This document shows positions 3,527-47,848 of a stretch of DNA of 64,000 nt, piece after piece. The stretch comes from Candidatus Nomurabacteria bacterium (GTDB taxonomy: Bacteria > Patescibacteriota > Minisyncoccia > Phycocordibacterales > UBA9973), in assembly GCA_963842815.1 (NCBI GenBank), contig CAWJHU010000002.1:44513-108512 (forward strand), given 5' to 3'. The notes under the pieces were generated by a model. It was given only the letters and a program-made list of their open reading frames with translations, ran no database searches and was not told the DNA's origin. Made by a program: the position numbers and the translations under genes. How positions within the stretch are numbered: the stretch's first letter is position 1; each line of letters starts with the position of its first letter.

Positions 3527-3555
3527 TTGACATTAAGTTAACATAGGTGTATTAT
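3527..3555 (+). promoter_or_regulatory. sigma70-type promoter (TTGACA, 17-nt spacer, TATTAT)
   Basis: TTGACA at 3527..3532, a 17-nt spacer, then TATTAT at 3550..3555. It sits just after the typA stop and upstream of the next gene. Confidence 0.5.
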
Positions 3556-3606
3556 GAAAATATAGAGTTTAACACTTTAATTAATAGAAAATTATTTTAT
3601 AAAATC

Positions 3607-4635
3607 ATGTCCACAATATCATTCAAACCAAAGCAAGTCACCAAAAAAATAACTGCCCACCTTCAAGACCGCACTCGCGATGTCATTATGAATCGTTTTG
3701 GTTTGACTGTTGACGCCGAAAGGAAAACCCTTGAGGAAATAGGCAAAAAATACAATATTACCAGGGAGCGCGTCCGTCAAATTGAGGATGCAGCCTTGGC
3801 TTTAATCAAGAAATCTTCCGCCTACAAAGAGCACCAGGCGGTTTTTGACGAGCTGAAGCAGTTGATACATTCTTTGGGTTCCATTGTCGCCGAAAGCGAT
3901 CTTCTGGCTCACATTTCAAAAGATAAAAATACACAAAACCATATTCATTTTTATTTGGAGTTGGGAGACTTTTTCAAAAAACACCGCGAAGACGAATATT
4001 TTAAAACTCGCTGGAGTGTGGATGATGTGATGGCTGAAAAGGTGCATGATTCTTTAAAGAAACTTTATGCAAGTTTGAAAGACGAAGACCTTGTTTTGGA
4101 AACGGAAATGGTTAAAAAATTCCTTGACCAAATGAAAGATGTGGCGGAACAATACAAAAATGAAGAAATAGCTCGAAGATGGCTTTCCATTTCTAAAACT
4201 ATTTCCAAGAACCCGCTGGGCGAATGGGGTAAGACGAGTTCTCCGAATGTCCATACTCGCGGAGTGAAAGACTATGCTTTTTTGGTTATGAGAAAACATG
4301 GTTCGCCGATGCATTTCAGGGAAGTGGCGGATGCGATTTCAAAAACTTTCGGCCGAAAGACGCACTATGCCACTTGTCATAACGAGCTTATAAAAGATCC
4401 TCGCTTTGTTCTAGTCGGCCGTGGACTTTATGCCTTAGCTGAATGGGGATACAAGACGGGCATTGCCCGAGAAGTTATCCGAGATATTCTGAAGCGAGAA
4501 GGCCCGCTTTCAAAAGATGCCGTAGTGGAAAAAGTGATGAAAGAAAGATATTTCAAAAAGAATACTATTTTGGTAAATCTAGCAAATCCGAAATATTTCA
4601 AGAAAAACAAAAGCGGACTTTATACTTTGATTTAA
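3607..4635 (+). CDS. sigma-70 region-4 HTH protein with C-terminal HARE-HTH-like domain
   Basis: The N-terminal segment GLTVDAERKTLEEIGKKYNITRERVRQIEDAALALIKK is a sigma-70 region 4 helix-turn-helix. The C-terminal segment YAFLVMRKHGSPMHFREVADAISK...RFVLVGRGLYALAEW matches the HARE-HTH pattern. The likely start is the ATG at 3607 (MSTISFKP). The track ORF begins at a GTG at 3547. Confidence 0.55.
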   Translation: MSTISFKPKQVTKKITAHLQDRTRDVIMNRFGLTVDAERKTLEEIGKKYNITRERVRQIEDAALALIKKSSAYKEHQAVFDELKQLIHSLGSIVAESDLLAHISKDKNTQNHIHFYLELGDFFKKHREDEYFKTRWSVDDVMAEKVHDSLKKLYASLKDEDLVLETEMVKKFLDQMKDVAEQYKNEEIARRWLSISKTISKNPLGEWGKTSSPNVHTRGVKDYAFLVMRKHGSPMHFREVADAISKTFGRKTHYATCHNELIKDPRFVLVGRGLYALAEWGYKTGIAREVIRDILKREGPLSKDAVVEKVMKERYFKKNTILVNLANPKYFKKNKSGLYTLI

Positions 4636-4716: not shown

Positions 4717-6009
4717 ATGATAGATTTGGTAATCTTTTGGCTTTACAAAATATTCCTTTTCGGGTTTTTGCCTATTGCCAGTGTGGCAATATTGGCCCGC
4801 CTCGCTTTCTTTTTTTGGGTTCACTACGTGAATACGGATTTTATTTCCGGCATTGAATGGGTTTTGCTTGAGATAATTCCTCCGCGGGACGTTCTGAGAT
4901 CTCCCAAAGCAATGGAACTTTTTATAACCAATGCCCTTTATCATTTCAGTTACAAAGGAGGACTTGAAACATATTGGCAAGGAGCGGTTTGGTTTTGGTT
5001 TTCTTTGGAAATAGTTTCCATTGACGGGCAAGTGCATTTTTATATACGCACACCTTCGCGCGTAAAAGAATTGATTGAAACTCAGATGTATGCCCAATTT
5101 CCTCAAGCACAAGTAAAAGTGGTGGAAGACTACACTCTGGCTGTCGATAAAATTGCCCCTAATAGTGTTTGGGACCTATGGGGATGTGAATTTAAATTAA
5201 CGAAACTTGATGCTTATCCTATTAAAACTTACATTGATTTTGGTTTAGATAAAGACCAAAAAGAAGAATATAAAATTGACCCCATTTCTCCGGTGATAGA
5301 ACTTTTTGGTTCCATAGGCAGAGGAGAACAAATGTGGATGCAAATTATCGTTACTCCTTCCAAAAAAGAATATCCCGAACACGCGCATTTTTGGCAAAAA
5401 ACCCATGATTGGATAAAAGAAGCTGACTTAGAAATGAAAAGATTGTTGGGTGAATTTACTCGTCAACAAGATAAAATAGAAGGAACATTTGCTAGAGCTC
5501 CTGATTATATAAGACCTTTAATAGATGGAACCAGTAAAAAAATGTTGAAAGTCGGTTTTGATACGGGGATTAGAGTATGCTATGTCGCAAAAAGAGAAGC
5601 CTTTAATGCGAACAACAAAAGAAATATGCGCTTAATTTTTCGTCAATATTCTGCCCCTTTTGTAAACGAGCTTACCCGCATAAACTCAACTCAGGCAGAT
5701 GCTTTTAGTGTGAACTTTTTTGCTTCTTTTTTTCCACTATCTAAGAAAAAAGTTATGCGCTTGTCGGACAGGATGCTTGAAGAGTACAGGGAACGGGAAT
5801 TTTTTCATCCGCCCATATATCACAGCATACACTTGCCTTGGCCTATTTCACCTATTATCTTTCCCAACTTTTTTCATCATCATATTAATGTTTTAAACAG
5901 CGAAGAATTGGCAACTCTTTGGCATTTCCCTGGCCAGATATTAAAAGTGCCTACTCTGGAACGCATAGAATCAAAAGAAGCTTCTCCTCCTACCAATTTG
6001 CCGACATAA
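4717..6009 (+). CDS. hypothetical membrane-anchored protein
   Basis: 430-aa ORF with two N-terminal TM helices and a large soluble domain. No family recognised. Confidence 0.5.
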   Translation: MIDLVIFWLYKIFLFGFLPIASVAILARLAFFFWVHYVNTDFISGIEWVLLEIIPPRDVLRSPKAMELFITNALYHFSYKGGLETYWQGAVWFWFSLEIVSIDGQVHFYIRTPSRVKELIETQMYAQFPQAQVKVVEDYTLAVDKIAPNSVWDLWGCEFKLTKLDAYPIKTYIDFGLDKDQKEEYKIDPISPVIELFGSIGRGEQMWMQIIVTPSKKEYPEHAHFWQKTHDWIKEADLEMKRLLGEFTRQQDKIEGTFARAPDYIRPLIDGTSKKMLKVGFDTGIRVCYVAKREAFNANNKRNMRLIFRQYSAPFVNELTRINSTQADAFSVNFFASFFPLSKKKVMRLSDRMLEEYREREFFHPPIYHSIHLPWPISPIIFPNFFHHHINVLNSEELATLWHFPGQILKVPTLERIESKEASPPTNLPT

Positions 6010-20131: not shown

Positions 20132-20728
20132 ATGTCAGACGAAAAGGAAGAAAAACCAGAAATTTCCGAGCCCAAAGAAGACGAATCGGAAGTTCTGGAA
20201 TTTGAATTCAATGAAGATGGCGAAGAAGATTTGAAAAAGACCCTAAAAAAACTCAGGGCCGATTTAAAAGCGTGCAAAGCTGAAAAAGAAGAATACCTGA
20301 CTGGCTGGCAGAAAGAACGGGCGGATTTTGCCAATTATAAAAAACAGGAAGAAGACAGAAAAACAAATTTCTCGGAAGTTATCCGGGAACGCATCATTAC
20401 CAGGTTTTTAAGCGTTCTGGACAGTTTCAATATGGCCTTTGCCAACAAAGAAGCTTGGGAAAAAGTGGATGAAAATTGGCGTAAGGGTGTGGAATATATT
20501 TATGCCCAGATAAATACTATTTTTGAAGAATATGGCGTAAAAGAAATAGGAGAAGTGGGGGAAAGTTTTGACCATAATATCCATCAATCCATAGAAATGG
20601 TGCCGACCGATAAAAAAGAAGACAATCACAAAATAGCGCAAGTTATTCAAAAAGGGTACAAATTAGGCGACCGGGTCATCCGGGCTGCTCGGGTAAATGT
20701 TTTTGAGTATGATGAATCAACAAACTAA
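20132..20728 (+). CDS. grpE: nucleotide exchange factor GrpE
   Basis: Acidic coiled-coil N-terminus. The C-terminal beta domain includes KGYKLGDRVIRAARVNV. Confidence 0.88.
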   Translation: MSDEKEEKPEISEPKEDESEVLEFEFNEDGEEDLKKTLKKLRADLKACKAEKEEYLTGWQKERADFANYKKQEEDRKTNFSEVIRERIITRFLSVLDSFNMAFANKEAWEKVDENWRKGVEYIYAQINTIFEEYGVKEIGEVGESFDHNIHQSIEMVPTDKKEDNHKIAQVIQKGYKLGDRVIRAARVNVFEYDESTN

Positions 20729-22418
20729 ACAATGCCAAAACTGCAAAAAAGATTTCACGATAGAAGTGGAAGATTTTAATTTCTATGAAAAAATAAAAGT
20801 TCCTCCGCCGACTTTTTGTCCGGAATGTCGTCTTATACGTCGTCTTGTTTGGCGTAACGAACATTCTCTTTTCAAGAGACCAAATGCGGAAGAGGGAAAG
20901 AAAGATTTAATCATTTCTGTTTTCCATCCTGACGCAAATGTAAAAACTTACGATAAGGAAATGTGGTGGAGCGACAAATGGGATTCGTGTCAGTACGGCA
21001 GGGATTATGATTTTAATAAACCGTTTTTTGAGCAATTCAAAGAGTTGATGCAAGAGGTTCCGCACTTGGCCTTATCCGATTCAAGGTCTGTTGATTCTCG
21101 GTTTTGTAATCTTACGGTAGAAATGAAAAATTGCTATTTAGTTACTGCCGCCTGGACTTGTGAAGATTCAATGTATTCCAACAGATTAGTTACATGTAAA
21201 TTTACTCATGATTCATATATTTGTTACAACACAGAATTTGCGTATGAAAATGTGTATTGTCGCGACTCCAGCAGATTGTTTTTCTCTTTGGAAAGCGAAG
21301 GATGTATGGATTCTTATTTTCTATACGACTGTCGTAATTGCTCTAACTGTATTTTGTGTTCCAATCTAAGAAATAAAAATTATTGCATTGAAAATATTCA
21401 GTATGCCAAAGAAGATTATTTGAAAAAGAAAGAAGAACTTTTCTTAAATACACGAAGCGGCATAGAAGAAGCCAGAATAAAATTTGAAAAATTATGGAGA
21501 AATGCATTTCATCGCGATTTGAAGCTTATAAATACGATAAATGTGGTTGGTGACCATGTATACAATTCTCGTAATTGCTATGAGGTTTTTGATATTGACG
21601 GAGAATATGAAAATGTTAAATATGCCAACTGGGGCAGTTCAGGGCTTCGCGATTCGTATGATGTTGGTCCAGGAGCCGGAGGCAATTCCGAGCTTACCTA
21701 TGAAGGCATAAGCATAGGCGTGAACAATAGCAGATGCTTTTTGGGCGCAATCATTTGGTATTCAAATGAGGTTTTATACAGCTTTATGATGAACAACTGC
21801 CAGAATTGCTTCGGCTGTACTGAAATGAATGGCAAAAAATATTGTATTTTAAATAAACAATATACCAAAGAAGAATATGAAAGACTGCTTCCAAAAATCA
21901 AACAGCATATGAAAGATATGCCATATAAGGATAAACAAGGAAGAGTCTATGGATTTGGCGAATTTTTTCCGCCGGAACTTTCACCTTTTGCCTATAACGA
22001 GACAATCGCGCAGGATTATTTTCCCACAGATAAGGAAACGGCTGAGTCAAAAGGATTTTTATGGCGCGAAAATATTTCGGGTTCATATAAAATAACCCAA
22101 AAGGGGAAAGATTTACCGCAAACTATTTTAGAAGTGAAAGACTCTATTTTAGATGAAGTTATCGAATGTGAAATCACCGGCAAACCTTTTAAAATTATTG
22201 AGCAAGAGCTCAATTTTTATAGAAGATTCAATCTGCCTCTTCCGTCGGTTCATCCCGACGAACGCCACAATAGGCGCCTGAAATTCCGCAATCCTGTAAT
22301 GTTAAACAAAAAGCAATGCTTTTTTGGAGACAAAGAAATTATTACCACTTATCCTCCGGAACCGATAGGCCCGAGGAAAGTGCTTTGCACGGAGCATTAT
22401 AAACAAGAAATTTATTAA
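20709..22418 (+). CDS. cysteine-rich multi-zinc-ribbon repeat protein, paralog 1
   Basis: N-terminal segment CQNCKKDFTIEVEDFNFYEKIKVPPPTFCPECRLIRRL. Internal repeats have the pattern CxxCxxCxxC-x8-YC...QY.KEEY. A C-terminal zinc-ribbon-like segment follows. The probable start is at 20709 or 20712 (MMNQQTKQC); the track start at 20697 overlaps grpE. Confidence 0.6.
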   Translation: MMNQQTKQCQNCKKDFTIEVEDFNFYEKIKVPPPTFCPECRLIRRLVWRNEHSLFKRPNAEEGKKDLIISVFHPDANVKTYDKEMWWSDKWDSCQYGRDYDFNKPFFEQFKELMQEVPHLALSDSRSVDSRFCNLTVEMKNCYLVTAAWTCEDSMYSNRLVTCKFTHDSYICYNTEFAYENVYCRDSSRLFFSLESEGCMDSYFLYDCRNCSNCILCSNLRNKNYCIENIQYAKEDYLKKKEELFLNTRSGIEEARIKFEKLWRNAFHRDLKLINTINVVGDHVYNSRNCYEVFDIDGEYENVKYANWGSSGLRDSYDVGPGAGGNSELTYEGISIGVNNSRCFLGAIIWYSNEVLYSFMMNNCQNCFGCTEMNGKKYCILNKQYTKEEYERLLPKIKQHMKDMPYKDKQGRVYGFGEFFPPELSPFAYNETIAQDYFPTDKETAESKGFLWRENISGSYKITQKGKDLPQTILEVKDSILDEVIECEITGKPFKIIEQELNFYRRFNLPLPSVHPDERHNRRLKFRNPVMLNKKQCFFGDKEIITTYPPEPIGPRKVLCTEHYKQEIY

Positions 22419-22561: not shown

Positions 22562-24337
22562 ATGGCAAAGGATTATACAAATATACACCGAGGATTGGTG
22601 TTTAAATATTTCTGGCAAGTCATCAGGCATTTCAAGGTGTCTTTTTTTACCATTATTATTTGTACGACAATCGCATCGATACTCGATATTTATATTCCGT
22701 TTCAATACCTGAATCTCTGGAATGTTTTAAGCGCGAATAATTTTTCCGTTATGCCGATTGCTCAATCGATAATCATTATGGTTTTGATACTAAACTTGGT
22801 TCGCTGGGTTATCCGCCGAACTTCAGGTTTTTCTACTTCATATTTTGAATCGGCAGTGATGACCGGTCTTCGCAACCAAGCTTTTTCCTATATGATAGGC
22901 CATTCGCATTCTTTCTTTGCAAATAATTTCGGAGGGTCTTTAACGCGAAAAATAACTAAATACGCCAGAGCTTTTGAAAAAATAGCGGACAGAATGATTT
23001 TTGACGGATTGCCGCTTTTGGTCAGAAGTGTGGGAACAATCGTCGCCATATATGCGCTGTTGCCGAAATACGCTTATATTATGGGAATATTTTGCTTGGC
23101 ATTTCTAGCGACAGCTTTCTTTTATATTAGTCGCAAATTGAAATACGATATTATCGCCGCAGAGGCCGACACCAAAACGACAGGCGTGTTGTCCGATGCC
23201 ATAGGCAATCATTCTTCTATTCAATTATTTACCGGACATGAAAATGAAATAGATCGTGTTGAAGATATGACAAGGAAACAGCACAAAGCGACTCTTTTCA
23301 ATTGGTATTTATGGGAAGGCCTGGGCGCTGTCCAAAGTTTTTATATGGTTGCTGTTGAATTTATTATTTTCTGGGTAGCCCTTAAGGATTGGCAATTATC
23401 TCTCATTACTCTGCCGATAATAGTTTTATTGCAAAGTTATTTGATTCGCTTAGCTGATAATTTGTGGAGTTTCGGCGGAATTGTTCGAACATATTATGAA
23501 AGTTTTGCCGATGCGCAAGAAATGGCTCTTGTTCTTGACACGCCTTATGAAATTGTCGACAAGTATACGAAAACAGCTGATAATATAAAAGGAAAAATTG
23601 TTTTTGAAAAAGTGACTTATTTCTATAAAAACAACGACAATAAAGTATTGGATAATTTTTCGTTGACCATCCCGAGCGGGCAGAAGATAGCCATCGTCGG
23701 TCCTTCCGGCGCAGGCAAAACGACTTTTGTCAGACTTCTAATGAGAATGTTTAATTTAACTAGCGGCAAGATTACCATAGATGGAATAGATATCAGTGAA
23801 ATTTCTCAAAAGAATCTTCGCGAACAAATATCTTTCGTTCCGCAAGATCCTGTACTTTTTCATCGCACCTTGATTGAAAATATACGTTATGGCAGACGCG
23901 ATGCCACAGATGAAGAAGTGAAAAAGGCAGCGCATTTGGCGCACTGTGATGATTTTATCGATAAATTACCTTATGGTTATGAAACATACGTAGGGGAACG
24001 CGGAGTGAAGCTTTCCGGCGGTGAACGCCAGCGCGTCGCTATCGCTCGCGCGATTTTAAAAAACGCGCCGATACTTATTTTAGACGAGGCGACTTCTTCA
24101 CTCGATTCTAATTCCGAACATTTGATTCAAGACGCGCTTACAAAATTAATAGCAGGGAAGACGACTATAGTCATTGCCCACAGGCTTTCGACCATCAGGC
24201 AGATGGATAGGATTATCGTGATAAGAGACGGAAAAATCACAGAAGATGGAACGCACGATGAACTTGTTAATAAAAAAGATGGAGTTTATAAAAAACTTTG
24301 GGATTTACAAGCGGGTGGTTTTAGAAAAGTTATTTAA
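22562..24337 (+). CDS. ABC transporter, fused permease/ATP-binding exporter (MsbA-like)
   Basis: Six N-terminal TM helices. Walker A GPSGAGKTT, signature LSGGERQRVAIARA, and Walker B ILILDEATSSLD. Confidence 0.88.
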   Translation: MAKDYTNIHRGLVFKYFWQVIRHFKVSFFTIIICTTIASILDIYIPFQYLNLWNVLSANNFSVMPIAQSIIIMVLILNLVRWVIRRTSGFSTSYFESAVMTGLRNQAFSYMIGHSHSFFANNFGGSLTRKITKYARAFEKIADRMIFDGLPLLVRSVGTIVAIYALLPKYAYIMGIFCLAFLATAFFYISRKLKYDIIAAEADTKTTGVLSDAIGNHSSIQLFTGHENEIDRVEDMTRKQHKATLFNWYLWEGLGAVQSFYMVAVEFIIFWVALKDWQLSLITLPIIVLLQSYLIRLADNLWSFGGIVRTYYESFADAQEMALVLDTPYEIVDKYTKTADNIKGKIVFEKVTYFYKNNDNKVLDNFSLTIPSGQKIAIVGPSGAGKTTFVRLLMRMFNLTSGKITIDGIDISEISQKNLREQISFVPQDPVLFHRTLIENIRYGRRDATDEEVKKAAHLAHCDDFIDKLPYGYETYVGERGVKLSGGERQRVAIARAILKNAPILILDEATSSLDSNSEHLIQDALTKLIAGKTTIVIAHRLSTIRQMDRIIVIRDGKITEDGTHDELVNKKDGVYKKLWDLQAGGFRKVI

Positions 24338-24835
24338 AAAAGCTGAATTTGTTTCTGGATCAAGCTTGTCGGTGACTATTATCATCAGCTCGGTGCCGAG
24401 TCCTAAATCTTTTTTGATATTTGTAAAAAGATGTTCATAAGGAAAAGGGGAGATCCAGACTGTATTTTTTATGCAAGTGAAATCCGCTTTTTTCAAAAGA
24501 TAGCGCAAAGCCTCGCGCTCGCCTTTTCTTTCTTCCGGAATATCTAAAATTATAATTCTCCAAAGACCATCCCAAGCGGTGGAAACCAATACACCCTCAC
24601 CTTCGAGTTTTAGAGTATTTAATTTATTCTTGCCCTTTTTTGTCAGTTTCAAATAACTTTTATTGTCGGACTGAATCATTTCTACATGGCCTGATTCCAC
24701 TAGATTTTTTATGGAACGGGTGAGAGCATATCCTGTTTTTTGGTCTTTACTAGCCTTTATTAAATCTAAAGGAATAGCTGGCTTTTCGGCTAAAATTTTA
24801 AGTATTTTATTAGAATATTCCTGTTTCCTTAACAT
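24305..24835 (-). CDS. winged-helix transcriptional regulator (PaaX-like)
   Basis: An N-terminal wHTH (ILKILAEKPAIPLDLIKASKDQKTGYALTRSIKNLVESG) is followed by a C-terminal domain DGLWRIIILDIPEE...REALRYLL...TVWISP resembling PaaX_C. The likely start is the internal Met (MLRKQEY). It overlaps the ABC gene 3' end convergently. Confidence 0.4.
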   Translation of the reverse strand: MLRKQEYSNKILKILAEKPAIPLDLIKASKDQKTGYALTRSIKNLVESGHVEMIQSDNKSYLKLTKKGKNKLNTLKLEGEGVLVSTAWDGLWRIIILDIPEERKGEREALRYLLKKADFTCIKNTVWISPFPYEHLFTNIKKDLGLGTELMIIVTDKLDPETNSAFLNNFSKTTRL

Positions 24836-24961
24836 AACCCATATATTATAACATATACTGTCTTTTGACAAGTATTTAGCGGTCGCAAAAAACTTGCAAA
24901 ATATTTTAAATGGGTGTAATATCAATTAAATTAGCTCTTTTCTAAAAACACGCATAAAATT

Positions 24962-25060: not shown

Positions 25061-26923
25061 ATGTCAAAAATAATAGGTATAGATTTAGGAACAACAAATT
25101 CGGCTGTAGCCATCATTGAGGGAGGCGCGCCGAAAATTATTGAAAACGTGGAAGGCAACCGCACCACGCCTTCCGTCATTGCTATGGCAAAAAATGGAGA
25201 CCGATTAGTCGGACTTCTCGCCAAAAGACAGGCAGTCACAAATCCGGAAAATACAATTTCTGAAATTAAAAGATATATGGGTCACAGGTTCGATGATCCA
25301 GGCGTGCAGAAAGATAAAACGACTGCTCCATTCAAAATCGAAGCGGGAGAAGACGGCGGAGTGAAAGTAAAAATGTCCGAGAAGTTTTATCGTCCGGAGG
25401 AAATCTCGGCGATGATTTTGCAGAAAATAAAAACGGATGTTGAGACGAAGCTCGGCGAAAAAATAACTGAAGCTGTCATCACCGTGCCGGCTTATTTCAA
25501 CGACGCGCAAAGAAAGGCAACCAAAGACGCCGGACAAATTGCCGGGCTGGATGTTAAAAGAATCATCAATGAACCGACGGCTGCCGCGCTCGCTTACGGA
25601 TTTAATAAAAAGAAAAATGAAAAAATAGTCGTTTACGATTTCGGCGGAGGAACTTTTGATGTGTCCGTGCTTGAAATAGGCGATGATGTAATAGAAGTGA
25701 AGTCTACTGATGGCGACAGCCACATGGGCGGAGGCGATATCGACCGCAAGATGATAAATTGGATTGCTGAAGAATATAAAAAAGAATCCGGCATTGATAT
25801 CAGAAAAGATCCTCTGGCTCACCAGCGTTTGCGAGAAGCAGCCGAGAAGGCGAAACATGAACTTTCCACTACCATGGAAGCGGAAATAAATATTCCTTTC
25901 ATTACATCCGATGCCACTGGTCCGAAGCACTTGCTGATGAAAATGTCCCGAGCCACGCTTGAATCTCTAGCGAAAGAATATGTTGACCGTTCAATAGAGA
26001 TCACAAAAAGAGCGCTTGCCGCATCGCCATTCAAGATGAATGAAATAAATGAAATCATAATGGTCGGCGGACAAACCAGAATGCCGATGATGGTGGAAGC
26101 AGTGAAAAACCTTTTCGGTAAGACGCCGAATATGTCCATCAATCCTGACGAAGTCGTGGCTTTGGGCGCTGCTGTGCAGGGAGGTGTCTTAGCAGGAGAT
26201 GTGCGTGATGTCCTTTTACTTGATGTTATTCCGCTTTCGCTTGGTATTGAAACTTTGGGTGGGGTGGCTACAAAATTAATTGATAGAAATACCACTATTC
26301 CAGCCTCAAAATCCCAAGTATTTTCAACGGCGGCCGACAATCAGACTTCTGTGGAAATCCATATAGTGCAAGGCGAACGCCCGATGGCTTCCGACAATAA
26401 ATCTCTCGGCCGTTTCATTCTGGACGGCATTCCGCCGGCCCCAAGAGGTATTCCGCAAGTGGAAGTAACTTTTGATATTGATGTAAATGGAATCCTAAAT
26501 GTAAAAGCGATGGATAAAGCTTCTCAAAAAGTTCAATCCATAAAAATTGAAGCAAGTTCCGGACTGAAAGACGAAGATATTAAAAAAATGCAAGCAGATG
26601 CCGAGGTACACGCCGAGGAAGATAAGAAGAAAAAAGAAACTGTGGATGTAAAAAATACTGCCGAAATGATTATTTATACTGCGGAAAAAGCGTTGAAAGA
26701 TAATGAAGCAAAAATTCCAGCAGATGTGAAAGAAAATGTTAATGCGAAAATAACCGCTTTACGCGGAGTGAAAGACGGCGCGGATGTTGGGGCAATTAAA
26801 AAAGCTACCGAAGAATTATCTGCCGAAATGTCCAAAATCGGCGAAGCAATGAATAAGGCCGGAGCCGAAACTCCTCCGGGCGCTTCAGCTCCCGAAGAGC
26901 AAGGTCCCGAAGTAAAAGATTAA
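25061..26923 (+). CDS. dnaK: molecular chaperone DnaK (Hsp70)
   Basis: [23 protein letters not shown], the full NBD and SBD, and an acidic C-terminal tail. Confidence 0.97.
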
Positions 26924-27146
26924 GAAGAAATAATTTTATGGAAAAACCAAAACCGCTGAATGTAAAAATAATACAAATTGTCTTAAAAGAGGACCACATT
27001 GTATTCGGATTGGGAAGTGATGATTTAGTTTACAGATATGACCCCGAGGAATCTGTTTGGCTACTTTATACAACCGAAGGTTTAACGTTCTAAGACAATA
27101 TTGTATATAGTTCCCAAAACATAAGCTTTTTAGTTTTGTTAATCTC

Positions 27147-27161: not shown

Positions 27162-29144
27162 ATGGAACTGCACGAACTGCCTAAAAATAAAGAGCTTACG
27201 TATATTGGTTATACTACTTATAGAGATAAAAATCAGCTTTTTGGAATAAAGCGCAAAGACAGGCGCCAGCATGTTTATATTCTCGGAAAGTCCGGCACAG
27301 GTAAATCCGTGCTGATGTTCAACATGGTCATTCAGAATATTCAGAATGGTGATGGAGTCTGTGTCGTTGATCCGCACGGCGAGCTGGTGGAGAGCGTGCT
27401 TTCCGCCATTCCTCCGCACCGAATGAAAGATGTCGTTTATTTTAATCCGGCGGATACGGAATATCACATCGGTTTTAATGTCTTGGAACTCATTGACTCA
27501 AAATACAAACACCTGGTGGCTTCCGGATTGATGGGAATTTTTACAAAAATTTGGGCGAACGCTTGGAGCGCCCGAATGGAATACATTTTAAATAATGCGA
27601 TTTTGGCCTTGCTCGATACCCCGGGAACAACACTTCTCGGTATTCCCCGAATGCTGGTGGACAAAGATTATCGTCAAAAAATAATCACTAATTTAAAAGA
27701 CCCAGTCATTAAGGCTTTTTGGGTGCACGAATATGAAGCTTGGCAAGATAAGTTCCGCAATGAAGCTATCGCGCCGATTCAAAACAAAGTCGGACAATTT
27801 CTTTCCACTTCCATCATCCGCAATATCGTCGGTCAGTCCATAAGCACCATAAATATTTTTGACATTATGAATGAAGGCAAAATCTTCTTGGTAAACGTTT
27901 CCAAGGGGCGCATCGGTGAAGACAATTCCTCGCTTTTGGGAGGCATGATTATTACTAAAATCCAGCTGGCGGCCATGGAACGGGTGCGCATTCCGGAAGA
28001 AAGTCGAAAAGATTTTTATTTATATGTGGATGAATTTCAAAACTTCGTTACTGATGCTTTTGCCGGTATTTTGTCCGAGGCTAGAAAATATCGCTTAAAT
28101 TTAACGGTTGCCCACCAATACACCGCCCAGCTTGTTACCGATAAAAGTTCCAGTGTGCGAGACGCTATTTTCGGCAACGTCGGAACGATGATAGTTTTCA
28201 GAGTTGGCGCCGACGATGCGGAATTTTTAGAAAAAGAATTTGAACCGGAATTTACTCCGCAGGATATTGTGAATCTGCCGAACTTCAAAGTTTATTTGAA
28301 ATTAATGATAGACGGCGTATCTTCTCGTCCATTTTCCGCCAAAACCATTCCGCCCATGGTGAAATCCGGCAACAAAGAAGTGGAGGAAGAAGTCATAAAA
28401 TCTTCCCGCACGCTTTATTGTAGGCCAAGAGAAGTGGTGGAAAGGGAAATAAACGATTGGAGTGGAATGTCCATAGGCGACGACAGCAGTTCCGGCAACA
28501 TGGAAAAATTTCCGGCTATTTGTTCCAATTGTAAAAAAGAGACGATGGTTCCTTTCAAGCCGGAGCCGGGCAGAGCGGTCTATTGCAAAGATTGCATAGC
28601 CAAAATAAAAGCCGGCGAGATAAAACCGGTCGGCGGAATAAAACAAATCAAACAGGATGAAACCAAGTTCTATAAGCCCTTGGCGGATTTAGGTATAGAA
28701 TTTCAACAAAAGGACAGAAGCGTGGTGGATGAAGAAAGATACACGGAAAGAATCAACAAACCCATATTCCATGATTTTGATAAAAAAATTCCGATTCCGG
28801 TGAAAAAAAATCCGATATTTTCAACAATTAAGAAAGTTTTTACCAAAAGTCCTGCACCCCAAAAAACGACTGAAATAAAAGTTCCAAGAGAAAATCCGGG
28901 ACTGAAAGAGGCATTGAATAAAGCATTGGCTCAAAATAAGCCTCCTGTTCCAACTCCCACCCCTCCTTCTATTTCGCTCAATGCTTTAAAGAATGAAAAT
29001 AAAGAAAAATCATCCAAAGACCGTGCAGCCAGCGCCGAAGATATGGACAAATTAAAAAATCTTATCAAAACGTCAGATATGTCTAAAACAAGAGAAGAAA
29101 TAAAAGAAGTACCCGAAGATGTTTTGAAAAAAATTTTGGAATAA
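27162..29144 (+). CDS. FtsK/HerA-superfamily P-loop ATPase, type IV coupling protein (VirD4/TraG/TrwB)-like, with C-terminal zinc ribbon and Lys/Pro-rich tail
   Basis: Walker A YILGKSGTGKS followed by VVDPHGE. Walker B YLYVDEFQNF. The segment ARKYRLNLTVAHQYTAQL resembles the TraG/VirD4 Q-motif region. The C-terminal extension carries CSNC...CKDC. Confidence 0.65.
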   Translation: MELHELPKNKELTYIGYTTYRDKNQLFGIKRKDRRQHVYILGKSGTGKSVLMFNMVIQNIQNGDGVCVVDPHGELVESVLSAIPPHRMKDVVYFNPADTEYHIGFNVLELIDSKYKHLVASGLMGIFTKIWANAWSARMEYILNNAILALLDTPGTTLLGIPRMLVDKDYRQKIITNLKDPVIKAFWVHEYEAWQDKFRNEAIAPIQNKVGQFLSTSIIRNIVGQSISTINIFDIMNEGKIFLVNVSKGRIGEDNSSLLGGMIITKIQLAAMERVRIPEESRKDFYLYVDEFQNFVTDAFAGILSEARKYRLNLTVAHQYTAQLVTDKSSSVRDAIFGNVGTMIVFRVGADDAEFLEKEFEPEFTPQDIVNLPNFKVYLKLMIDGVSSRPFSAKTIPPMVKSGNKEVEEEVIKSSRTLYCRPREVVEREINDWSGMSIGDDSSSGNMEKFPAICSNCKKETMVPFKPEPGRAVYCKDCIAKIKAGEIKPVGGIKQIKQDETKFYKPLADLGIEFQQKDRSVVDEERYTERINKPIFHDFDKKIPIPVKKNPIFSTIKKVFTKSPAPQKTTEIKVPRENPGLKEALNKALAQNKPPVPTPTPPSISLNALKNENKEKSSKDRAASAEDMDKLKNLIKTSDMSKTREEIKEVPEDVLKKILE

Positions 29145-29147
29145 CAA

Positions 29148-30893
29148 ATGAAAAACGAAGTCAGACAATGCCAGAACTGCAAAAAAGACTTCACCATAGA
29201 AACTGAAGATTTTTCTTTCTACCAAAAAATTAAAGTTCCTCCGCCGACCTTTTGTCCGGATTGTCGGACTATTCGGCGTTTATGCTGGCGAAACGAAATG
29301 TGTCTCTATAAAAGAAAATGTGATGCTGAAGGACATGACGAAAATGTCATTACCATTTATCATCCGGATGAAAAACTTGTAGTGTATGACACAAAAAGTT
29401 GGTGGGGAGACAAATGGAATGCTATTGCTTACGGGCGAGAATATAATTTTTCAAAACCATTTTTTGAACAATGGAAAGAATTAAGAGACAGCATCCCATT
29501 GCAAGCTCTTTCAAATTCAAATGCGAAAAACAGCGATTATTGTAATGTGGCAGAAGATAGCAAAGACAGTTATATGTCCTCAGGCTCTTGGAAAATTGAA
29601 AAAACTTTTTATTCAAATAGAATCGGAGATATCAAAGAATCCTCAGACCTTTATGTGATTCATCGCTCGGAACTTTGTTATGATGATATGTTTTGCACGG
29701 ATAGTTATCATCTTTTATATTCTTTAAAATGCAAAAATTGTGTGGATTCGTATTTTCTATACGATTGCCACGGCTGTATAAATTGTCTGGGCTGTACCAG
29801 TCTTCGCAGCAAGTCCTATTGTATGTGGAATGAACAGCTTAGCCGGGAGGAATATCTAAGCCGTTTAGAGAAATTGAATTTAAAAAGTTATAAAACTATC
29901 TTAGAACTGAAAGAAAAATTTAATGAATTTTATTTGAAATCGATTCATCGTTTTGCCAATCAGGTAAAGGTAATAAATTCTACCGGAGATAATATTGAAG
30001 GAACAAAAAATTGCAAAATCTGTTTTGACACATTTGACCGAGTGGAAGACTGTAAATATTCTCATTGGGATATACGCATTAAAGACGCCTATGATTCGGG
30101 TCCAGGAGGAGGAGAGGGAGAATTACTATATGAAGTATTTGATACCGGTTTGGGCAATTTTCGCAATTTGTTTACCAGCGTGGTATATAGTTCCAACGAC
30201 GTTGAATATTCTTTCAATTGCTATGGCTGTTCGTATTTATTCGGATGTATCGGAATTAGGAATAAAAATTATTGCATTTTAAATAAACAGTATAGTAAAG
30301 AAGAATATGAAGCCCTCATTCCAAAAATCAAAGAGCAGATGAATAAAATACCGTATGTCGATAAAAGGGGACTTGTTTATAAGTACGGGGAATTTTTCCC
30401 GGCGGAAATTTCACCATTTTGTTATAACGAGACTCAAGCGCAAGATTATTTTCCCATAACCAAAGAAAAAGCGTTAAAAATGGGGTACAGATGGCGAGAC
30501 AGAAAAATCAGCGATTATGTGACGACCATAGAGGCTATAAATTTGCCGGATAGCTTAGAAGATATCCAGGATTCTATTACGGAAGAAATTATTGGCTGTT
30601 TGCATAAAGGGAAATGTCAGGACCGTTGCCTGGGAGCTTTTAAAATCACAGAAAATGAACTCAGATTATATCGCCAAATCGGAGTGCCTTTACCACGACT
30701 TTGTTTTATTTGCCGCCACGAAGCCCGACTCCGAAAACGCAATCCGATGAAATTATGGCGTCGAACTTGTATGTGTGATAAGAAAAGTCACGAACATGAT
30801 GGTAAATGTAAAAATGAATTTGAAACTAGTTATTCTCCCGACAGACCGGAGATTATTTATTGCGAGAGCTGTTACAATAAGGAAGTGTATTGA
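29148..30893 (+). CDS. cysteine-rich multi-zinc-ribbon repeat protein, paralog 2
   Basis: CQNCKKDFTIETEDFSFYQKIKVPPPTFCPDCRTIRRL. The N-terminal coding sequence is ~80% identical at the nucleotide level to paralog 1. It has the same internal Cys repeats. Confidence 0.6.
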   Translation: MKNEVRQCQNCKKDFTIETEDFSFYQKIKVPPPTFCPDCRTIRRLCWRNEMCLYKRKCDAEGHDENVITIYHPDEKLVVYDTKSWWGDKWNAIAYGREYNFSKPFFEQWKELRDSIPLQALSNSNAKNSDYCNVAEDSKDSYMSSGSWKIEKTFYSNRIGDIKESSDLYVIHRSELCYDDMFCTDSYHLLYSLKCKNCVDSYFLYDCHGCINCLGCTSLRSKSYCMWNEQLSREEYLSRLEKLNLKSYKTILELKEKFNEFYLKSIHRFANQVKVINSTGDNIEGTKNCKICFDTFDRVEDCKYSHWDIRIKDAYDSGPGGGEGELLYEVFDTGLGNFRNLFTSVVYSSNDVEYSFNCYGCSYLFGCIGIRNKNYCILNKQYSKEEYEALIPKIKEQMNKIPYVDKRGLVYKYGEFFPAEISPFCYNETQAQDYFPITKEKALKMGYRWRDRKISDYVTTIEAINLPDSLEDIQDSITEEIIGCLHKGKCQDRCLGAFKITENELRLYRQIGVPLPRLCFICRHEARLRKRNPMKLWRRTCMCDKKSHEHDGKCKNEFETSYSPDRPEIIYCESCYNKEVY

Positions 30894-30896
30894 CCT

Positions 30897-30950
30897 CACC
30901 CTAACCCTCTCCTGCCAGGAGAGGGGAAAAAGCAAAGGGGTGAGGTGGAA
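30897..30950 (+). terminator. GC-rich nested hairpin (possible terminator; no clear T-run)
   Basis: In CCTCACCC-TAACC-CTCTCCTG-cc-AGGAGAGG-GGAAAAAGCAAA-GGGGTGAGG, an outer stem CCTCACCC/GGGTGAGG encloses an inner perfect palindrome CTCTCCTGcCAGGAGAG. It lies 3 nt after the stop of the 29148..30893 gene and is very GC-rich for this genome. Confidence 0.35.
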
Positions 30951-30980
30951 TTTAAGCTGATTTTGTAGTAAAATAGCCAT

Positions 30981-32516
30981 ATGCCGAAGACAAATCGGGT
31001 GCAAATAATCAAATATGGCCCGCCGCCACCGGAATTGCCGGTGTTCGGAAAAGTGAAGCCTGAAGAAGTTTCTTTTATTGGGCGCACGAATTATGTGGCT
31101 TCTCTGGAAGAAAAGAAATTTATTTTTGGCATTAAGCGCATAGATCGCAGGCGCCATCTTTATATTGTCGGCAAGTCCGGCGTTGGCAAAAGCAAATTGC
31201 TTGAACTTTTGATGCGCCAGGATGTGACCTACAATCACGGCTTATGTTTTATTGACCCGCACGGCGATGTGATAGACGCGATGTTGGATTATATCCCAAA
31301 AGAACGCATTGAAGATGTTTGTGTCATAGACCCTGGAGATGTAGATTTTCCCGCATCCTTCAATCCGCTAGCCAATGTTGACCCGATGTTTAAATTTCAA
31401 TTGACCCAAGGTTTGATTGAAGTTCTGCAAAAACAATTCGGAGCCAACTGGACACCTCGTTTGGAACACGTTTTTCGTTTCACTTGTCTTGCCTTGCTTG
31501 ATTATCCGCATGCCACAATGCGCGGGATGATTTCAATGCTGACCGACAGAAATTACAGGCAGAAAGTGGTTGAATATATTACCGACGACATGGTCAAAAG
31601 ATTCTTCGCTATAGAATTCGCCGATTGGTCCGAGAAATTCGATACGGACGCTATTATTCCGCTGGTCAACAAACTCGGACAATTCTTGTCCGACCCGTTG
31701 CTCCGAAATATTTTCGGCCAGAAACAGAATAAAATTGACATAGGCGAACTTATGGAACAGGGCAAATTAATTTTTATAAATCTTTCCAAAGGACGCATCG
31801 GAGAAGAAAATTCCAGTTTCTTCGGTTCAATGTTCTTGACCAAAATAAAACAAGCGGGAATGGAGCGGGCCAGCATTCCGGAAGAAAACCGCGTAGACTT
31901 TTATTTGTATATAGATGAGTTTCATAATATTGTTACCCAGACATTTGAAAATATTTTATCAGAAGCCAGAAAATATGCCTTGAACCTCACTATGGCGCAC
32001 CAATACATTGGTCAGCTTATTCCGCAAGTGCAACACGCGGTGCTCGGGAATACAGGAAGCATTATTTGTTTCAGAGTAGGTGGAGAAGACGCGGTGAAAT
32101 TAAAACCGGAATTTGAACCTTTGTTCGGAGTGAAAGATATGATCAATTTGGCAGTAGCGGAATTTTATATTAAAATGACGATTGATGGGGAATCTTACGA
32201 CCCATTTTCCGCCGAGACTTTACGAGTCTTGCCTCCGACGCATCCATCATACCGAAAAGAAATCATTGAAGCTTCACGCAGAAAGTATTCAATATCCAAA
32301 GATGATGCGCAGAAATTAATAGAAGAGGAGGAGGCTTCCATTATCCGAAGTGCGGAAGAGAAAACCATTATTGAAGGGAAGGGAAAGAAAAAAGAAGATA
32401 AAGAAACAAAAGAAGGCGAAGGAGAATTGGAAGAAGATAAAGTTAACAGACTTGATGAAATTTTAAAGAAAGAAATAAAAAATAAAGTGGGCGGAGAAGC
32501 TGAGCCGATGATATAG
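30981..32516 (+). CDS. FtsK/HerA-superfamily P-loop ATPase, T4CP-like, paralog of 27162..29144
   Basis: [11 protein letters not shown]...IDPHGD, then [10 protein letters not shown] and [18 protein letters not shown]. It is collinear with the other ATPase but lacks the zinc-ribbon tail. The C-terminus is Glu/Lys-rich. Confidence 0.65.
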
Positions 32517-32521
32517 AAATT

Positions 32522-33190
32522 ATGAGTAAAGATTATTACAACATTTTAGGCGTAAATAAAGGCGCTTCTAAAGACGAAATCAAGAAGGCTTTTTATAAAT
32601 TGGCGCACAAATATCATCCTGATAAAAAAGAAGGCAATGAAGCAAAATTCAAAGAAGTAAACGAAGCTTATCAAGTACTTTCGGATGATGCCAAACGTGC
32701 GAAATACGACCAATTCGGGTCTGGATTTGAGAATATGGGGCAGGGGTACGGCGGAGCCAGACAAGGCGGCTTTAGTGGTTTTGAAGGTTTTGATTTCGGT
32801 AATTTTGCTGGAGGATTCCAAGGTAACAGTGGCGTGGATTTTGATTTTGGCGACCTGAACGATATTTTCAGCAGTTTTTTTACCGGAGGCAGGGGAGGGT
32901 TTACCAGAACTCCACGCGGACGAGATATGCAGACGGAATTGCAGATTTCTTTAATAGATTCTCTTTTGGGGGCGGAAAAGAAAATAATAGTGAGTGGAAA
33001 TAGGGAAGTAATCATAAAAATTCCTGCCGGCATTCAAAATAATCAGACTCTCAAGATGACCGGCTATGGCGAGACCATAAAAAATGGCAAAGCCGGCGAT
33101 TTATATATAAAAATAATTATAAAAATACCGAATAAGATTTCCAAAAAAGCCCGCGAACTTTTGGAGGAGCTTAAAAAAGAGGGGATATAG
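32522..33190 (+). CDS. dnaJ: minimal DnaJ-like co-chaperone (J domain, G/F-rich region, single C-terminal beta domain; no zinc finger)
   Basis: [33 protein letters not shown] (contains the HPD motif). A Gly/Phe-rich linker follows. The C-terminal ~90 aa resemble DnaJ CTD-II. There is no CxxCxGxG repeat. 222 aa. Confidence 0.75.
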
Positions 33191-33220: not shown

Positions 33221-34942
33221 TTGAGTATTGATAAAAATATGAAAAGTGAAACTAAAAATTGTCAGAATTGCAAAAAAGATTTTACAATAGAACCTGAAGA
33301 TTTTAAATTCTACGAAAAAATCAATGTTCCTCCTCCGACCTGGTGCCCAGAATGCAGACGCATTAGACGTCTCTCATTCCAAAATTCTTGGAATTTAAAT
33401 TGGCGTAATTGTGACAAATGCGGGAAGAGGATGCTTTCTGTGTATGGGCCGGAAATAAAAAATATAATTTGGTGTTTAGATTGTTGGTGGAATGATACCT
33501 GGGATGGCACTGAGTATGCGATGGATTATAATCCTTCACGTCCTTTTTTGGAACAAGTAAAAGAGTTAAGTAATAGAACACCTTTTTCATCACTGCAAAG
33601 TGCACATACCACATTAAAAAACTCAGCTTATACAAATGAAGTAGGGTGGAGTAAAGATTGTTACTTAGTTTTTTGGGCGGATTATTGTGAAGGTGTTTAC
33701 TATTCTTCTATTTTAAATGCTTTAAAATATAGTGCAGATTGTCTTCGAGCACTTGATTCAGAGCTTTGTTATGAATCTATAGGTGTAAAAAAATGTTATC
33801 AAACTTTTTTTTCAGAGGAGTGTGATAATTGCGTAGATGTTTATTTTTCTCGTAATTGTTATAGTTGTACAAATTGCATTGGATGTGTGAATCTTCGTGG
33901 AGCCATAAATTATATTTTCAACGTAAAATATAGTAAAGAAGAATATGTAGAAAAATTAAAAGAACTAAAAATTGACTCATGGGAAAGTTTACAAAAATTA
34001 AAACAGAAAGCACAAAAATTTTGGCTTACTAAACCATATAGAGAATACTCAGGCAACTCTTTAAATTTTAATGTGACGGGTGAATATGTTTATGAATCAA
34101 AAAATTCTAAGAACTTATATATTTGTGATGGTGCTGAAGATTGTAAATGGACCGAACTGATAACTGTAAAAACTGCAAAAGATTGTATAGATTATTCTGG
34201 ATGGGGGAATAATTCTTCTTTGATTTATGAATGTGTGAACGTTGGTGAAAATGTGAACTCTGCTTACTTTTCTTTATATAGTTGGTTGGATTGTGTAAAT
34301 ATACAATATTGCTACTGGTCTATGTCTGGGAAAAATAATTTCGGTTGTGTAAATTTGAAAAGAAAGCAATATTGTATTTTAAACAAAGAATATTCAAAAG
34401 ATGAATATGAAAAACTAAAAGCAAAAATTATAGAAGATATGAAAAAAAATCCCTATGTAGATAAACTCGGACGTATATTTAGCTACGGAGAATTTTTTCC
34501 ACTTGAATTTGGTAAATTTCCTTACAATAAATCAAATGCTATGCGTTTCTTTCCAAAAACAAAAGAGCAAGCACTTATTGAAGGATATTATTGGGGAGAA
34601 ACAGAAAATCTTGGGTATCCAATTTCAATAAAATCTTCTTCTTTACCAGATACTATAAAAGAAACGAGTGAGTTAATTTTAAACGAAACCATAGGATGTT
34701 CTGTTTGTAACCGTGCATACAAAATTACTAAAGGGGAAATTGATCTTTTACGTAAAATGAATTTACCCCTTCCTCATGAATGTCCTAAGTGTAGGGAAAA
34801 TAAGCGATTTTCTAGATTAAACTTGCCAAAGCTTTATAAAAGAATTTGTGCAAAATGTAAAAAAGAAATTAATACAGCCTTTTCTCCCGATCATCCAGAA
34901 ATAGTTTACTGTGTAAAATGTTACCAACAAGAATTTTCTTAA
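33221..34942 (+). CDS. cysteine-rich multi-zinc-ribbon repeat protein, paralog 3
   Basis: CQNCKKDFTIEPEDFKFYEKINVPPPTWCPECRRIRRL. It has the same architecture as paralogs 1 and 2. Confidence 0.6.
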   Translation: MSIDKNMKSETKNCQNCKKDFTIEPEDFKFYEKINVPPPTWCPECRRIRRLSFQNSWNLNWRNCDKCGKRMLSVYGPEIKNIIWCLDCWWNDTWDGTEYAMDYNPSRPFLEQVKELSNRTPFSSLQSAHTTLKNSAYTNEVGWSKDCYLVFWADYCEGVYYSSILNALKYSADCLRALDSELCYESIGVKKCYQTFFSEECDNCVDVYFSRNCYSCTNCIGCVNLRGAINYIFNVKYSKEEYVEKLKELKIDSWESLQKLKQKAQKFWLTKPYREYSGNSLNFNVTGEYVYESKNSKNLYICDGAEDCKWTELITVKTAKDCIDYSGWGNNSSLIYECVNVGENVNSAYFSLYSWLDCVNIQYCYWSMSGKNNFGCVNLKRKQYCILNKEYSKDEYEKLKAKIIEDMKKNPYVDKLGRIFSYGEFFPLEFGKFPYNKSNAMRFFPKTKEQALIEGYYWGETENLGYPISIKSSSLPDTIKETSELILNETIGCSVCNRAYKITKGEIDLLRKMNLPLPHECPKCRENKRFSRLNLPKLYKRICAKCKKEINTAFSPDHPEIVYCVKCYQQEFS

Positions 34943-47663: not shown

Positions 47664-47816
47664 ACCTATAAAATAAGGCTTTTATATAAATTTATAGAGA
47701 GAAATATTAGTAAAAATTAAGTTATCCACAGTTCATTGCATTTTCATTTATTGTGGTGTACAATATCATAATGTAAATAACGGGTGTAGGTTTCTTGTCT
47801 ATGACCCGCGAAGATT

Positions 47817-47848
47817 AGACCTTCCTTTATTGGGAGGTCTTTTCTTTT
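47817..47848 (+). terminator. hairpin plus T-run in the convergent intergenic region
   Basis: AGACCTTCC-tttattg-GGAGGTCT followed by TTTCTTTT. Confidence 0.4.

Follow-up and report, generated by a model that had tools for sequence, protein, structure and literature searches.

What is the work of two coupling-protein-like ATPases that are encoded beside a family of cysteine-rich (Cys-rich) proteins, among the chaperone genes of a Candidatus Nomurabacteria bacterium? The question is raised by a 64,000-nucleotide (nt) stretch of contig CAWJHU010000002.1 (positions 44,513 to 108,512, forward strand; assembly GCA_963842815.1), here called the window. An initial annotation had placed two paralogous ATPase open reading frames (ORFs) at 27162..29144 and 30981..32516, each followed by a Cys-rich gene, and proposed a candidate translocation or export module. 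We find both ORFs at those coordinates. The two ATPases, termed ATPa and ATPb, are part of what is, by homology and gene order, a recurring Patescibacteria-wide module made up of a DUF8128 membrane protein, one or two ATPases with distinctive tails and a zinc ribbon, and an array of zero to six Cys-rich genes, for which a role in translocation or export is plausible. The principal features, with protein lengths and positions in amino acids (aa), are:

4717..6009, + strand: DUF8128 (PF26449) membrane protein, 430 aa, with a hydrophobic anchor at aa 1-38; 21 kb upstream of the ATPases
20697..22418, + strand: Cys1, Cys-rich paralog, 573 aa, overlapping the end of grpE
27162..29144, + strand: ATPa, soluble VirD4/TrwB-like P-loop ATPase, 660 aa, from Pfam, PDB sequence and Foldseek searches; a core (aa 1-440), then the zinc ribbon, a disordered K/P/E-rich linker and a conserved C-terminal peptide
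27285..27308, + strand: ATPa Walker A, GKSGTGKS, aligning with GATGTGKS of TrwB
28017..28037, + strand: ATPa Walker B, YLYVDEF, aligning with LWLFIDEL of TrwB
28521..28595, + strand: ATPa CxxC-x17-CxxC zinc ribbon of treble-clef type, aa 454-478, CSNCKKETMVPFKPEPGRAVYCKDC
29106..29141, + strand: ATPa extreme C-terminal peptide, EVPEDVLKKILE-COOH, near-identical in more than 35 orthologs, where it follows variable tails
29148..30893, + strand: Cys2, multi-zinc-ribbon protein, 581 aa with 35 Cys, starting 4 nt after the ATPa stop
30981..32516, + strand: ATPb, paralogous VirD4/TrwB-like ATPase, 511 aa, with an acidic tail and without the zinc ribbon
32496..32513, + strand: ATPb C-terminal peptide, EAEPMI-COOH (P-hydrophobic-hydrophobic-COOH), recognized from ortholog tails
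33221..34942, + strand: Cys3, Cys-rich paralog, 573 aa, after dnaJ, with a C-terminal CxxC-x17-CxxC ribbon of the ATPa ribbon family

The first step is to place the ATPases. ATPa and ATPb are collinear paralogs, as had been proposed, with 44% identity and 65% positives over 440 aa (E 1e-130), and every motif that the initial annotation quoted is present. Walker A reads GKSGTGKS in ATPa (aa 42-49) and GKSGVGKS in ATPb (aa 64-71), DPHG(E/D) is found in both, Walker B reads YLYVDEF and YLYIDEF, respectively, and both proteins have the ARKY..NLT.AHQY block, with the ARKYRLNLTVAHQY region aligning with RKAGLRVVAGLQSTSQL of TrwB. The decision between a coupling-protein and a HerA identity had been left to profile searches, and type IV coupling protein (T4CP) families outrank HerA in every test. 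ATPa matches the Pfam families TrwB_AAD_bind at 43.3 bits (cutoff 20.5; aligned over aa 32-349), T4SS-DNA_transf at 34.7 (cutoff 20.1) and TraG-D_C at 27.5 (cutoff 22), and ATPb passes T4SS-DNA_transf at 27.0 bits; DUF87 (HerA) scores 36 bits on ATPa, above its gathering threshold and below the top T4CP family. The best NCBIfam models are the VirD4-like conju_CD1115 (49.7 bits, cutoff 250) and SXT_TraD (48.4 bits, cutoff 366), ahead of the VirB4 models, and TrwB is the sole significant match among PDB sequences, in an alignment that spans Walker A and the Walker B/Q region. An AF2 model of ATPa aa 1-490 is of low confidence (pLDDT 51.6, from too shallow an alignment) and was used for secondary structure and a caveated Foldseek ranking, which runs from TrwB and DotL (6sz9_A; 2.8e-6) through Cag-beta (1.3e-5) and HerA (2e-4) to VirB4 (8rtd; 2e-3). 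The same model predicts helices at aa 113-238, between Walker A and B, like the all-alpha domain of T4CPs.

Two other identities fit less well. HerA/DUF87 proteins (HerA-NurA and HerA-based defence) belong to the same superfamily, and PADLOC returns weak HerA matches, but HerA falls below the T4CPs in each comparison (Pfam, NCBIfam, PDB sequence and Foldseek), and the ATPases have no match to the HAS-barrel N-domain of HerA and no NurA, Sir2 or DUF4297 partner as a neighbour. VirB4 scores are sub-cutoff (AAA_10, 21.6 bits with a cutoff of 27.5; TIGR00929, 14.7 with a cutoff of 643), and Foldseek places VirB4 behind both the T4CPs and HerA. As judged from their sequences, ATPa and ATPb are T4CP-derived members of the VirD4/TrwB coupling-protein branch of the FtsK-HerA superfamily.

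How far does the likeness to coupling proteins go? With T4CPs (VirD4/TraG/TraD/TrwB) the two proteins share a P-loop nucleotide-binding domain with the same arrangement of Walker A, Walker B and Q region and, as in TraD, a disordered acidic C-terminal extension that ends in a short conserved peptide; the helices predicted between Walker A and B of ATPa, in the low-confidence model, may be a further likeness. Unlike T4CPs, they lack an N-terminal transmembrane (TM) domain in the same polypeptide; the suspicion that TM helices are missing is borne out by hydropathy, with no hydrophobic segment in either protein (KD19 peaks at 1.13 for ATPa and at 1.00 for ATPb). They also differ in being unlinked to VirB4, relaxase or oriT, in occurring as two paralogs per genome with a zinc ribbon on one, in scoring about 50 bits against equivalog cutoffs of 250-650 bits, and in being encoded by chromosomal, near-universal and highly conserved genes. 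No VirB4, relaxase or pilin gene lies within the 64-kb window, and no association with VirB4, other type IV secretion system (T4SS) genes or relaxases was seen in 80 related loci, which were collected by a genome scan and analysed by tblastn and ORF clustering; the earlier view that the ATPases are not obviously part of a conjugative element agrees with these results and with a published survey (PMC12102498). Given the missing TM domain, the lack of T4SS or relaxase linkage and the sub-threshold family scores, we do not file ATPa and ATPb as bona fide T4CPs.

That survey counted 5713 VirD4-like homologs in 2918 of 3035 Patescibacteria genomes, or about two per genome, of which 148 lie near virB4, with VirB4 itself in 2417 genomes (Quinonero-Coronel et al. 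2025; PMC12102498). Its authors wrote that exaptation of the orphan T4CP homologs "cannot be ruled out", and their role is an acknowledged open question. ATPa and ATPb are almost certainly the same proteins as these orphans; a count of about two homologs per genome fits the ATPa/ATPb pair, and both paralogs occur together in 45 of the 80 loci. The two-paralog structure, the DUF8128 partner and its fusions, the Cys-rich arrays, the zinc ribbon and the C-terminal motifs are not described in that study, and we found no prior description in the literature of DUF8128/PF26449 or of a pairing of coupling proteins with Cys-rich proteins in the candidate phyla radiation. The module around the ATPases, with DUF8128, two specialised paralogs, tail peptides and Cys-rich arrays, thus appears to be undescribed. 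Across the clade, ATPb is 76% identical on average (up to 89%), and ATPa 70% when its variable tail is included, with 88-95% for the core among top homologs; the corresponding values are 82% for DnaK and 61-63% for CysRS and DnaJ. Conservation of the ATPases is therefore comparable to that of DnaK and above that of CysRS or DnaJ, which argues for a core rather than an accessory function.

What anchors such soluble ATPases, if they work at a membrane? The best candidate is DUF8128, which had gone unnoticed in the initial annotation, as had the C-terminal peptides, the embedding in a grpE-dnaK-dnaJ array and the optional nature of the Cys genes. The PF26449 assignment comes from a precomputed match on an identical protein (P0241), a match shared by 118 of 120 listed homologs; no relatives of DUF8128 were found in NCBIfam or PDB. 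DUF8128 is encoded directly upstream of the ATPases in 24 of the 80 loci. Distant lineages have the order SecD-SecF, sigma70_r4/HARE-HTH, 440-aa DUF8128, small TM protein, ATPb-ATPa, EF-P (minus strand), MnmA and ComEC, and Gracilibacteria, Kerfeldbacteria and Falkowbacteria have proteins in which DUF8128 and the ATPase are joined. The same combination is seen in the phrog_5156 proteins of Bacillus phages (phage G gp156, CP-51, SPO1-like, 0105phi7-2 gp33 and D6E gp23). The C-terminal half of phrog_5156 matches ATPa (E 4e-66) and ATPb (E 2e-49), and its N-terminal half is matched by 19 of 21 DUF8128 proteins (hmmscan, best E 9e-16), so that the phage proteins can be read as fusions of both; they differ from the bacterial module in their low identity (22-28%), in having no Cys-rich neighbours that we could find, and in their location in lysogeny/partition regions. 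An hhalign comparison of the DUF8128 alignment with a single phage protein is collinear and weak (probability 5%), and the link to the phages is based on the hmmscan matches and on the Patescibacteria fusions instead. Together, adjacency and fusion are strong evidence for a physical partnership. DUF8128 is likely the membrane partner of the ATPases and may restore, in trans, the membrane anchor that they lack.

DUF8128 itself has a constant upstream neighbour:

3547..4635, + strand: Sigma70_r4 plus HARE-HTH protein, identified by Pfam

This order is kept in 22 loci and in the Kerfeldbacteria locus L083, and the gene did not follow the ATPases to the dnaK locus but stayed beside DUF8128. Its product could be a dedicated regulator or a further component.

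The regions that follow the ATPase cores offer possible contact sites. The ribbon reported for the 660-aa copy scores above threshold for two families, with aa 448-481 matching PF23477 zf_Tbcl_2 at 47.2 bits (cutoff 27) and TIGR04272 at 51 bits (cutoff 36). Of 77 a-type orthologs, 67 carry it, and none of the b-type does; zinc binding has been shown experimentally for the CxxC-x17-CxxC domain type in other proteins (PMC12704099). Both ATPases also end in short peptides that are preceded by linkers of variable composition. The a-type proteins end in ...KEVPEDVLRKILE-COOH or, in other lineages, in an acidic amphipathic LxxALxxAL or in ...PGExVKF-COOH. The acidic tail noted on the 511-aa copy is present and ends in EAEPMI-COOH; EAEPMI, GGEPLI or PEPLI-COOH closes the b-type protein in about 40 orthologs, and fused ATPases of other classes end in EQPMV or SAPIL. 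By analogy, the tail peptides of ATPa and ATPb may be of a docking type. The C-tail of F-plasmid TraD docks TraM, and SSB recruits its partners through a conserved C-terminal peptide on a flexible tail. A further likeness is to the Legionella Dot/Icm coupling complex (DotL with DotM, DotN, IcmS/W and LvgA), in which a T4CP ATPase holds adaptors on a long C-terminal extension, among them DotN, a small Cys-rich zinc-binding subunit. In contrast to that complex, no Dot/Icm apparatus accompanies ATPa and ATPb, and the 570-aa Cys-rich proteins showed no relationship in sequence to DotN or the other adaptors.

The Cys-rich genes lie where the initial annotation had put them, Cys2 following ATPa by 4 nt and the short dnaJ intervening between ATPb and Cys3. 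Their products are paralogs, with 26-35 Cys each and 46% and 39% identity to Cys2, and are the only copies in the window. Each consists of a zinc ribbon and CxxC-x17-CxxC at both ends, visible as an internal repeat of the N- and C-terminal parts, with two Cys-rich repeat domains between them, and none has a hydrophobic segment. Searches of Pfam, NCBIfam, PADLOC, PHROGs and PDB sequences gave no family assignment, the sole exceptions being a sub-threshold match of the Cys3 C-terminus to zf_Tbcl_2 (24.7 bits) and one weak match to phrog_15341. An AF2 model of Cys2 (pLDDT 78.8, pTM 0.81) matched nothing in PDB or BFVD over its whole fold and gave zinc-ribbon matches only locally, and tblastn of Cys2 against phages gave no match. 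The family is nevertheless large, comprising 4626 clusters at 50% identity (E<=1e-3), all of about 550-600 aa, and its range includes Falkowbacteria, Kerfeldbacteria and Gracilibacteria. Some paralogs (L083 14005-15660; L085 15534-17183; window 22128-22361) lack the cysteines of the N-terminal or second ribbon and keep the surrounding motif, FxIxxxExxF...P.P...ER; these degenerate ribbons probably retain the fold.

Are the two families linked beyond this genome? The initial annotation had staked its proposal on the pairing recurring elsewhere, and the adjacency of ATPase and Cys-rich genes holds in other genomes. For 45 of 91 Cys genes, no unrelated ORF separates the gene from an ATPase, as compared with 181 of 1060 other ORFs (odds ratio 4.75, Fisher p 2e-11). 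At least one Cys gene is found in 39 of the 80 loci, and arrays hold zero to six. In the close clade (about 22 loci), the order is grpE-(Cys x0-2)-PaaX-like(-)-dnaK-ATPa-(Cys x0-3)-ATPb-dnaJ-(Cys x0-2)-5TM protein-CysRS(-). In more distant Paceibacteria, dnaK is absent, and either ATPb-(Cys x0-2)-ATPa is found or ATPa has an array of as many as six Cys genes beside it. We also sampled six Cys-rich members blind to their context and identified their neighbours by blastp; one contig (L089) was too short to inform and is left out of the count. An ATPase lies in or beside the Cys array in four of the five informative loci: L083 (Kerfeldbacteria) has a sigma-HTH gene, DUF8128, an ATPa-like gene and a DUF8128N::ATPb-like fusion followed by five Cys genes; L085 (Gracilibacteria) has six Cys genes and a DUF8128::ATPase fusion; L087 (Falkowbacteria) has four Cys genes and an ATPb-like fusion; and L088 has ClpB and an ATPb-like fusion followed by three Cys genes. 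Both families are thus linked across anciently diverged classes. An ABC exporter, which the initial annotation had counted as a component, did not hold up and was rejected, with relatives at >40% identity in only 2 of the 80 loci.

We suggest that a membrane-tethered, T4CP-derived ring uses its tails and ribbon to recruit zinc-ribbon proteins, which would be either cargo or adaptors, and drives translocation with ATP, a reading to which we give a probability of roughly 0.45. ATPa and ATPb would form a ring ATPase, possibly mixed, and DUF8128 would tether it to the membrane, recreating in trans the canonical T4CP layout of TM anchor plus nucleotide-binding domain. The ATPase tails and the zinc ribbon would capture zinc-ribbon proteins as threaded or exported cargo; by analogy with the DotL coupling complex, these proteins could instead serve as substrate adaptors. 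ATP hydrolysis would power translocation. That ATPa and the Cys-rich proteins have zinc ribbons of one family speaks for such recruitment. In this lineage, the ATPase pair has been relocated into the grpE-dnaK-dnaJ array, which predicts co-expression with chaperones able to hold unfolded clients. A bolder form of this proposal makes DUF8128 with ATPa/ATPb a self-contained, T4SS-independent protein-export system that is specific to Patescibacteria and, as a descendant of a coupling protein, would be a secretion system of a new type, whose substrates would be signal-peptide-less zinc-ribbon/Cys-rich proteins acting at the cell surface or in the host during episymbiosis; we regard this form as quite unlikely.

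Several observations weigh against a recruiting and translocating ring. No Cys-rich gene is found within 10 kb in 41 of the 80 loci, so adjacent Cys-rich genes are optional; even close relatives (L002, L008 and L009) have none in the locus, and the remaining informative Cys-centred locus, L090, is a single Cys gene, alone. DUF8128 has only a short N-terminal anchor and, by hydropathy, no evident channel. The ATPases fall far under every NCBIfam equivalog cutoff, and with so poor a model of ATPa (pLDDT 51.6) neither the all-alpha domain nor ring assembly is established. Proteins that are rich in zinc ribbons and devoid of signal peptides resemble intracellular binders of nucleic acid or protein more than they do secreted cargo. 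Finally, the T4CP homolog of Ca. Southlakia epibionticum is dispensable for epibiotic growth, whereas T4SS genes are essential (PMC12102498).

Could the cargo be DNA? A DUF8128-anchored ring might pump DNA, for uptake, export or segregation, with the ATPa ribbon and the multi-ribbon proteins binding nucleic acid. T4CPs and FtsK/HerA relatives are DNA pumps. NCBIfam yields a weak match to the archaeal DNA-import ATPase CedD, the treble-clef/zinc-ribbon modules locally match phage HNH and zinc-finger proteins, and the phage homologs, in their lysogeny/partition regions, carry the annotation 'DNA helicase or translocase'. In many lineages ComEC follows 3-4 genes further downstream, but this proximity belongs to a wider housekeeping synteny (EF-P, MnmA, AspRS). 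Patescibacteria have hardly any relaxases (109 in 3035 genomes; PMC12102498), no DNA-binding domain was detected in the ATPase core, and pumping DNA would leave the need for as many as six diverged 570-aa paralogs unexplained. We consider a DNA translocase unlikely.

A second alternative keeps the ring in the cytoplasm, where, with DnaK, DnaJ, GrpE and ClpB, it would unfold, assemble or metal-load the Cys-rich proteins or use them as zinc-dependent co-factors. Gene order lends this some appeal: the ATPase pair sits between dnaK and dnaJ in about 22 loci, DnaK or DnaJ is encoded within 10 kb in four other arrangements (L039, L054, L064 and L073), and ClpB adjoins the ATPase in L088. The recurrence of a CutA-like gene inside the module in 16 loci and the loss by the local DnaJ of its own zinc-finger domain point the same way. 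However, chaperone linkage is missing in most lineages, in which SecDF, EF-P and MnmA are the neighbours; a model set wholly in the cytoplasm leaves the conserved membrane anchor of DUF8128 without a function; and we know of no T4CP relative that acts as an unfoldase for cytoplasmic clients. Remodelling or metalloprotein handling is therefore very unlikely in our judgement.

Closest in content to the proposed tethered ring is the possibility that ATPa and ATPb serve in trans as the canonical coupling protein of a Patescibacteria T4SS that is encoded elsewhere, with the Cys-rich proteins as its effectors. The two readings overlap, the exit route being their sole difference, and the likelihoods that we attach to the several readings need not sum to one for this reason. 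T4CP genes can be far from virB4, VirB4 occurs in 80% of genomes, and the T4SS is essential for epibiosis and has no identified effectors. Yet T4CP homologs are found in more genomes than VirB4 (2918 versus 2417 of 3035), the module has a membrane partner of its own, and in Southlakia the T4CP can be lost and the T4SS cannot (PMC12102498); we hold this exit route to be highly improbable. The most improbable of all is anti-phage defence, with the HerA/T4CP-like ATPase as effector and the diversified Cys-rich proteins as sensors, since PADLOC matches (mad8, 3e-15; HerA, 1.4e-8), variable copy number, diverged paralogs, AbiEii and RHS/toxin genes adjoining some arrays and homologs in temperate phages are set against ATPases that occur in nearly all genomes (96%), are about as well conserved as DnaK and are located in housekeeping synteny rather than islands, individual Cys paralogs whose orthologs at 60-85% identity show that they are not hypervariable, and the absence of a nuclease, Sir2 or TIR effector.

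Whichever reading holds, Patescibacteria make up a large share of bacterial diversity, and almost every genome keeps about two orphan coupling-protein homologs. These orphans now gain defined partners in DUF8128, in an unannotated 570-aa zinc-ribbon family of >4600 clusters and in conserved tail peptides, and the notion that they were "exapted for something" becomes a set of testable hypotheses on interaction, localisation and secretion. If it is true that the Cys-rich proteins are exported, they would be candidate effectors of the epibiotic lifestyle.

The chaperone genes and other neighbours of the ATPases are context rather than core:

20132..20728, + strand: grpE, followed by Cys1
22562..24337, + strand: ABC exporter, not part of the module
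24305-24925, - strand: PaaX-like protein (PaaX_M Cas2-like domain, 67 bits), divergent, just upstream of dnaK
25061..26923, + strand: dnaK, directly upstream of ATPa in this clade only
26938-27093, + strand: 51-aa ORF between dnaK and ATPa, with no family match; relatives have an unrelated ORF or none
32522..33190, + strand: short dnaJ, 222 aa, no Cys, without the zinc-finger domain, 5 nt after ATPb
34952-35536, + strand: 194-aa protein with five hydrophobic segments and no Pfam family, which closes the array

Linkage to dnaK as a universal feature of the module was rejected, being confined to one clade plus a few independent proximities. The short DnaJ keeps the J domain, the G/F region and part of the C-terminal domain and is without the CxxCxGxG zinc finger; relatives at the same position are mostly about 359 aa, and the short form is found only in the closest loci (L004, L009, L016 and L048). 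The PaaX-like gene is kept upstream of dnaK in 18 loci. In Gram-positive bacteria that position is occupied by HrcA, and the PaaX-like protein may be a regulator of the chaperone/ATPase array. The position of the 194-aa protein is kept in 15 loci of the clade.

Two further genes recur near the ATPases. In 16 loci, the module contains or adjoins a 101-aa CutA-like gene (divalent-cation tolerance), located between ATPb and ATPa in L025, L026, L028, L029, L052, L079 and others and after grpE in L002, L004, L008, L009, L012 and L020; it is sometimes paired with a cytidylyltransferase-like gene, and a link to metal is possible. In L088 (612-5684), ClpB is encoded directly upstream of the DUF8128-tail::ATPb-like gene and three Cys genes; in addition to dnaK, dnaJ and grpE, this gives a second, independent case of a chaperone neighbour.

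By its homologs, the window falls within Patescibacteria, near Paceibacteria/Nomurabacteria, and the rest of the window is housekeeping in content (aminoacyl-tRNA synthetases, MurG, FtsW, PBP, BipA, MnmA, DnaB and RecR). A stretch of low GC content (0.31-0.33) at 45345-48653 encodes a 772-aa protein that joins a Schlafen-group-3 helicase to an S24 peptidase (PADLOC PDC-S41, 7e-17), adjoined by a DUF3800 protein (PADLOC PDC-M04A, 3e-15), and looks like a small candidate defence island. Three ORFs of 610, 391 and 425 aa at 10803-12635 and 13238-15684 (+ strand) have no Pfam match at E<=1e-5; the 391-aa ORF has a weak FtsA-like match.

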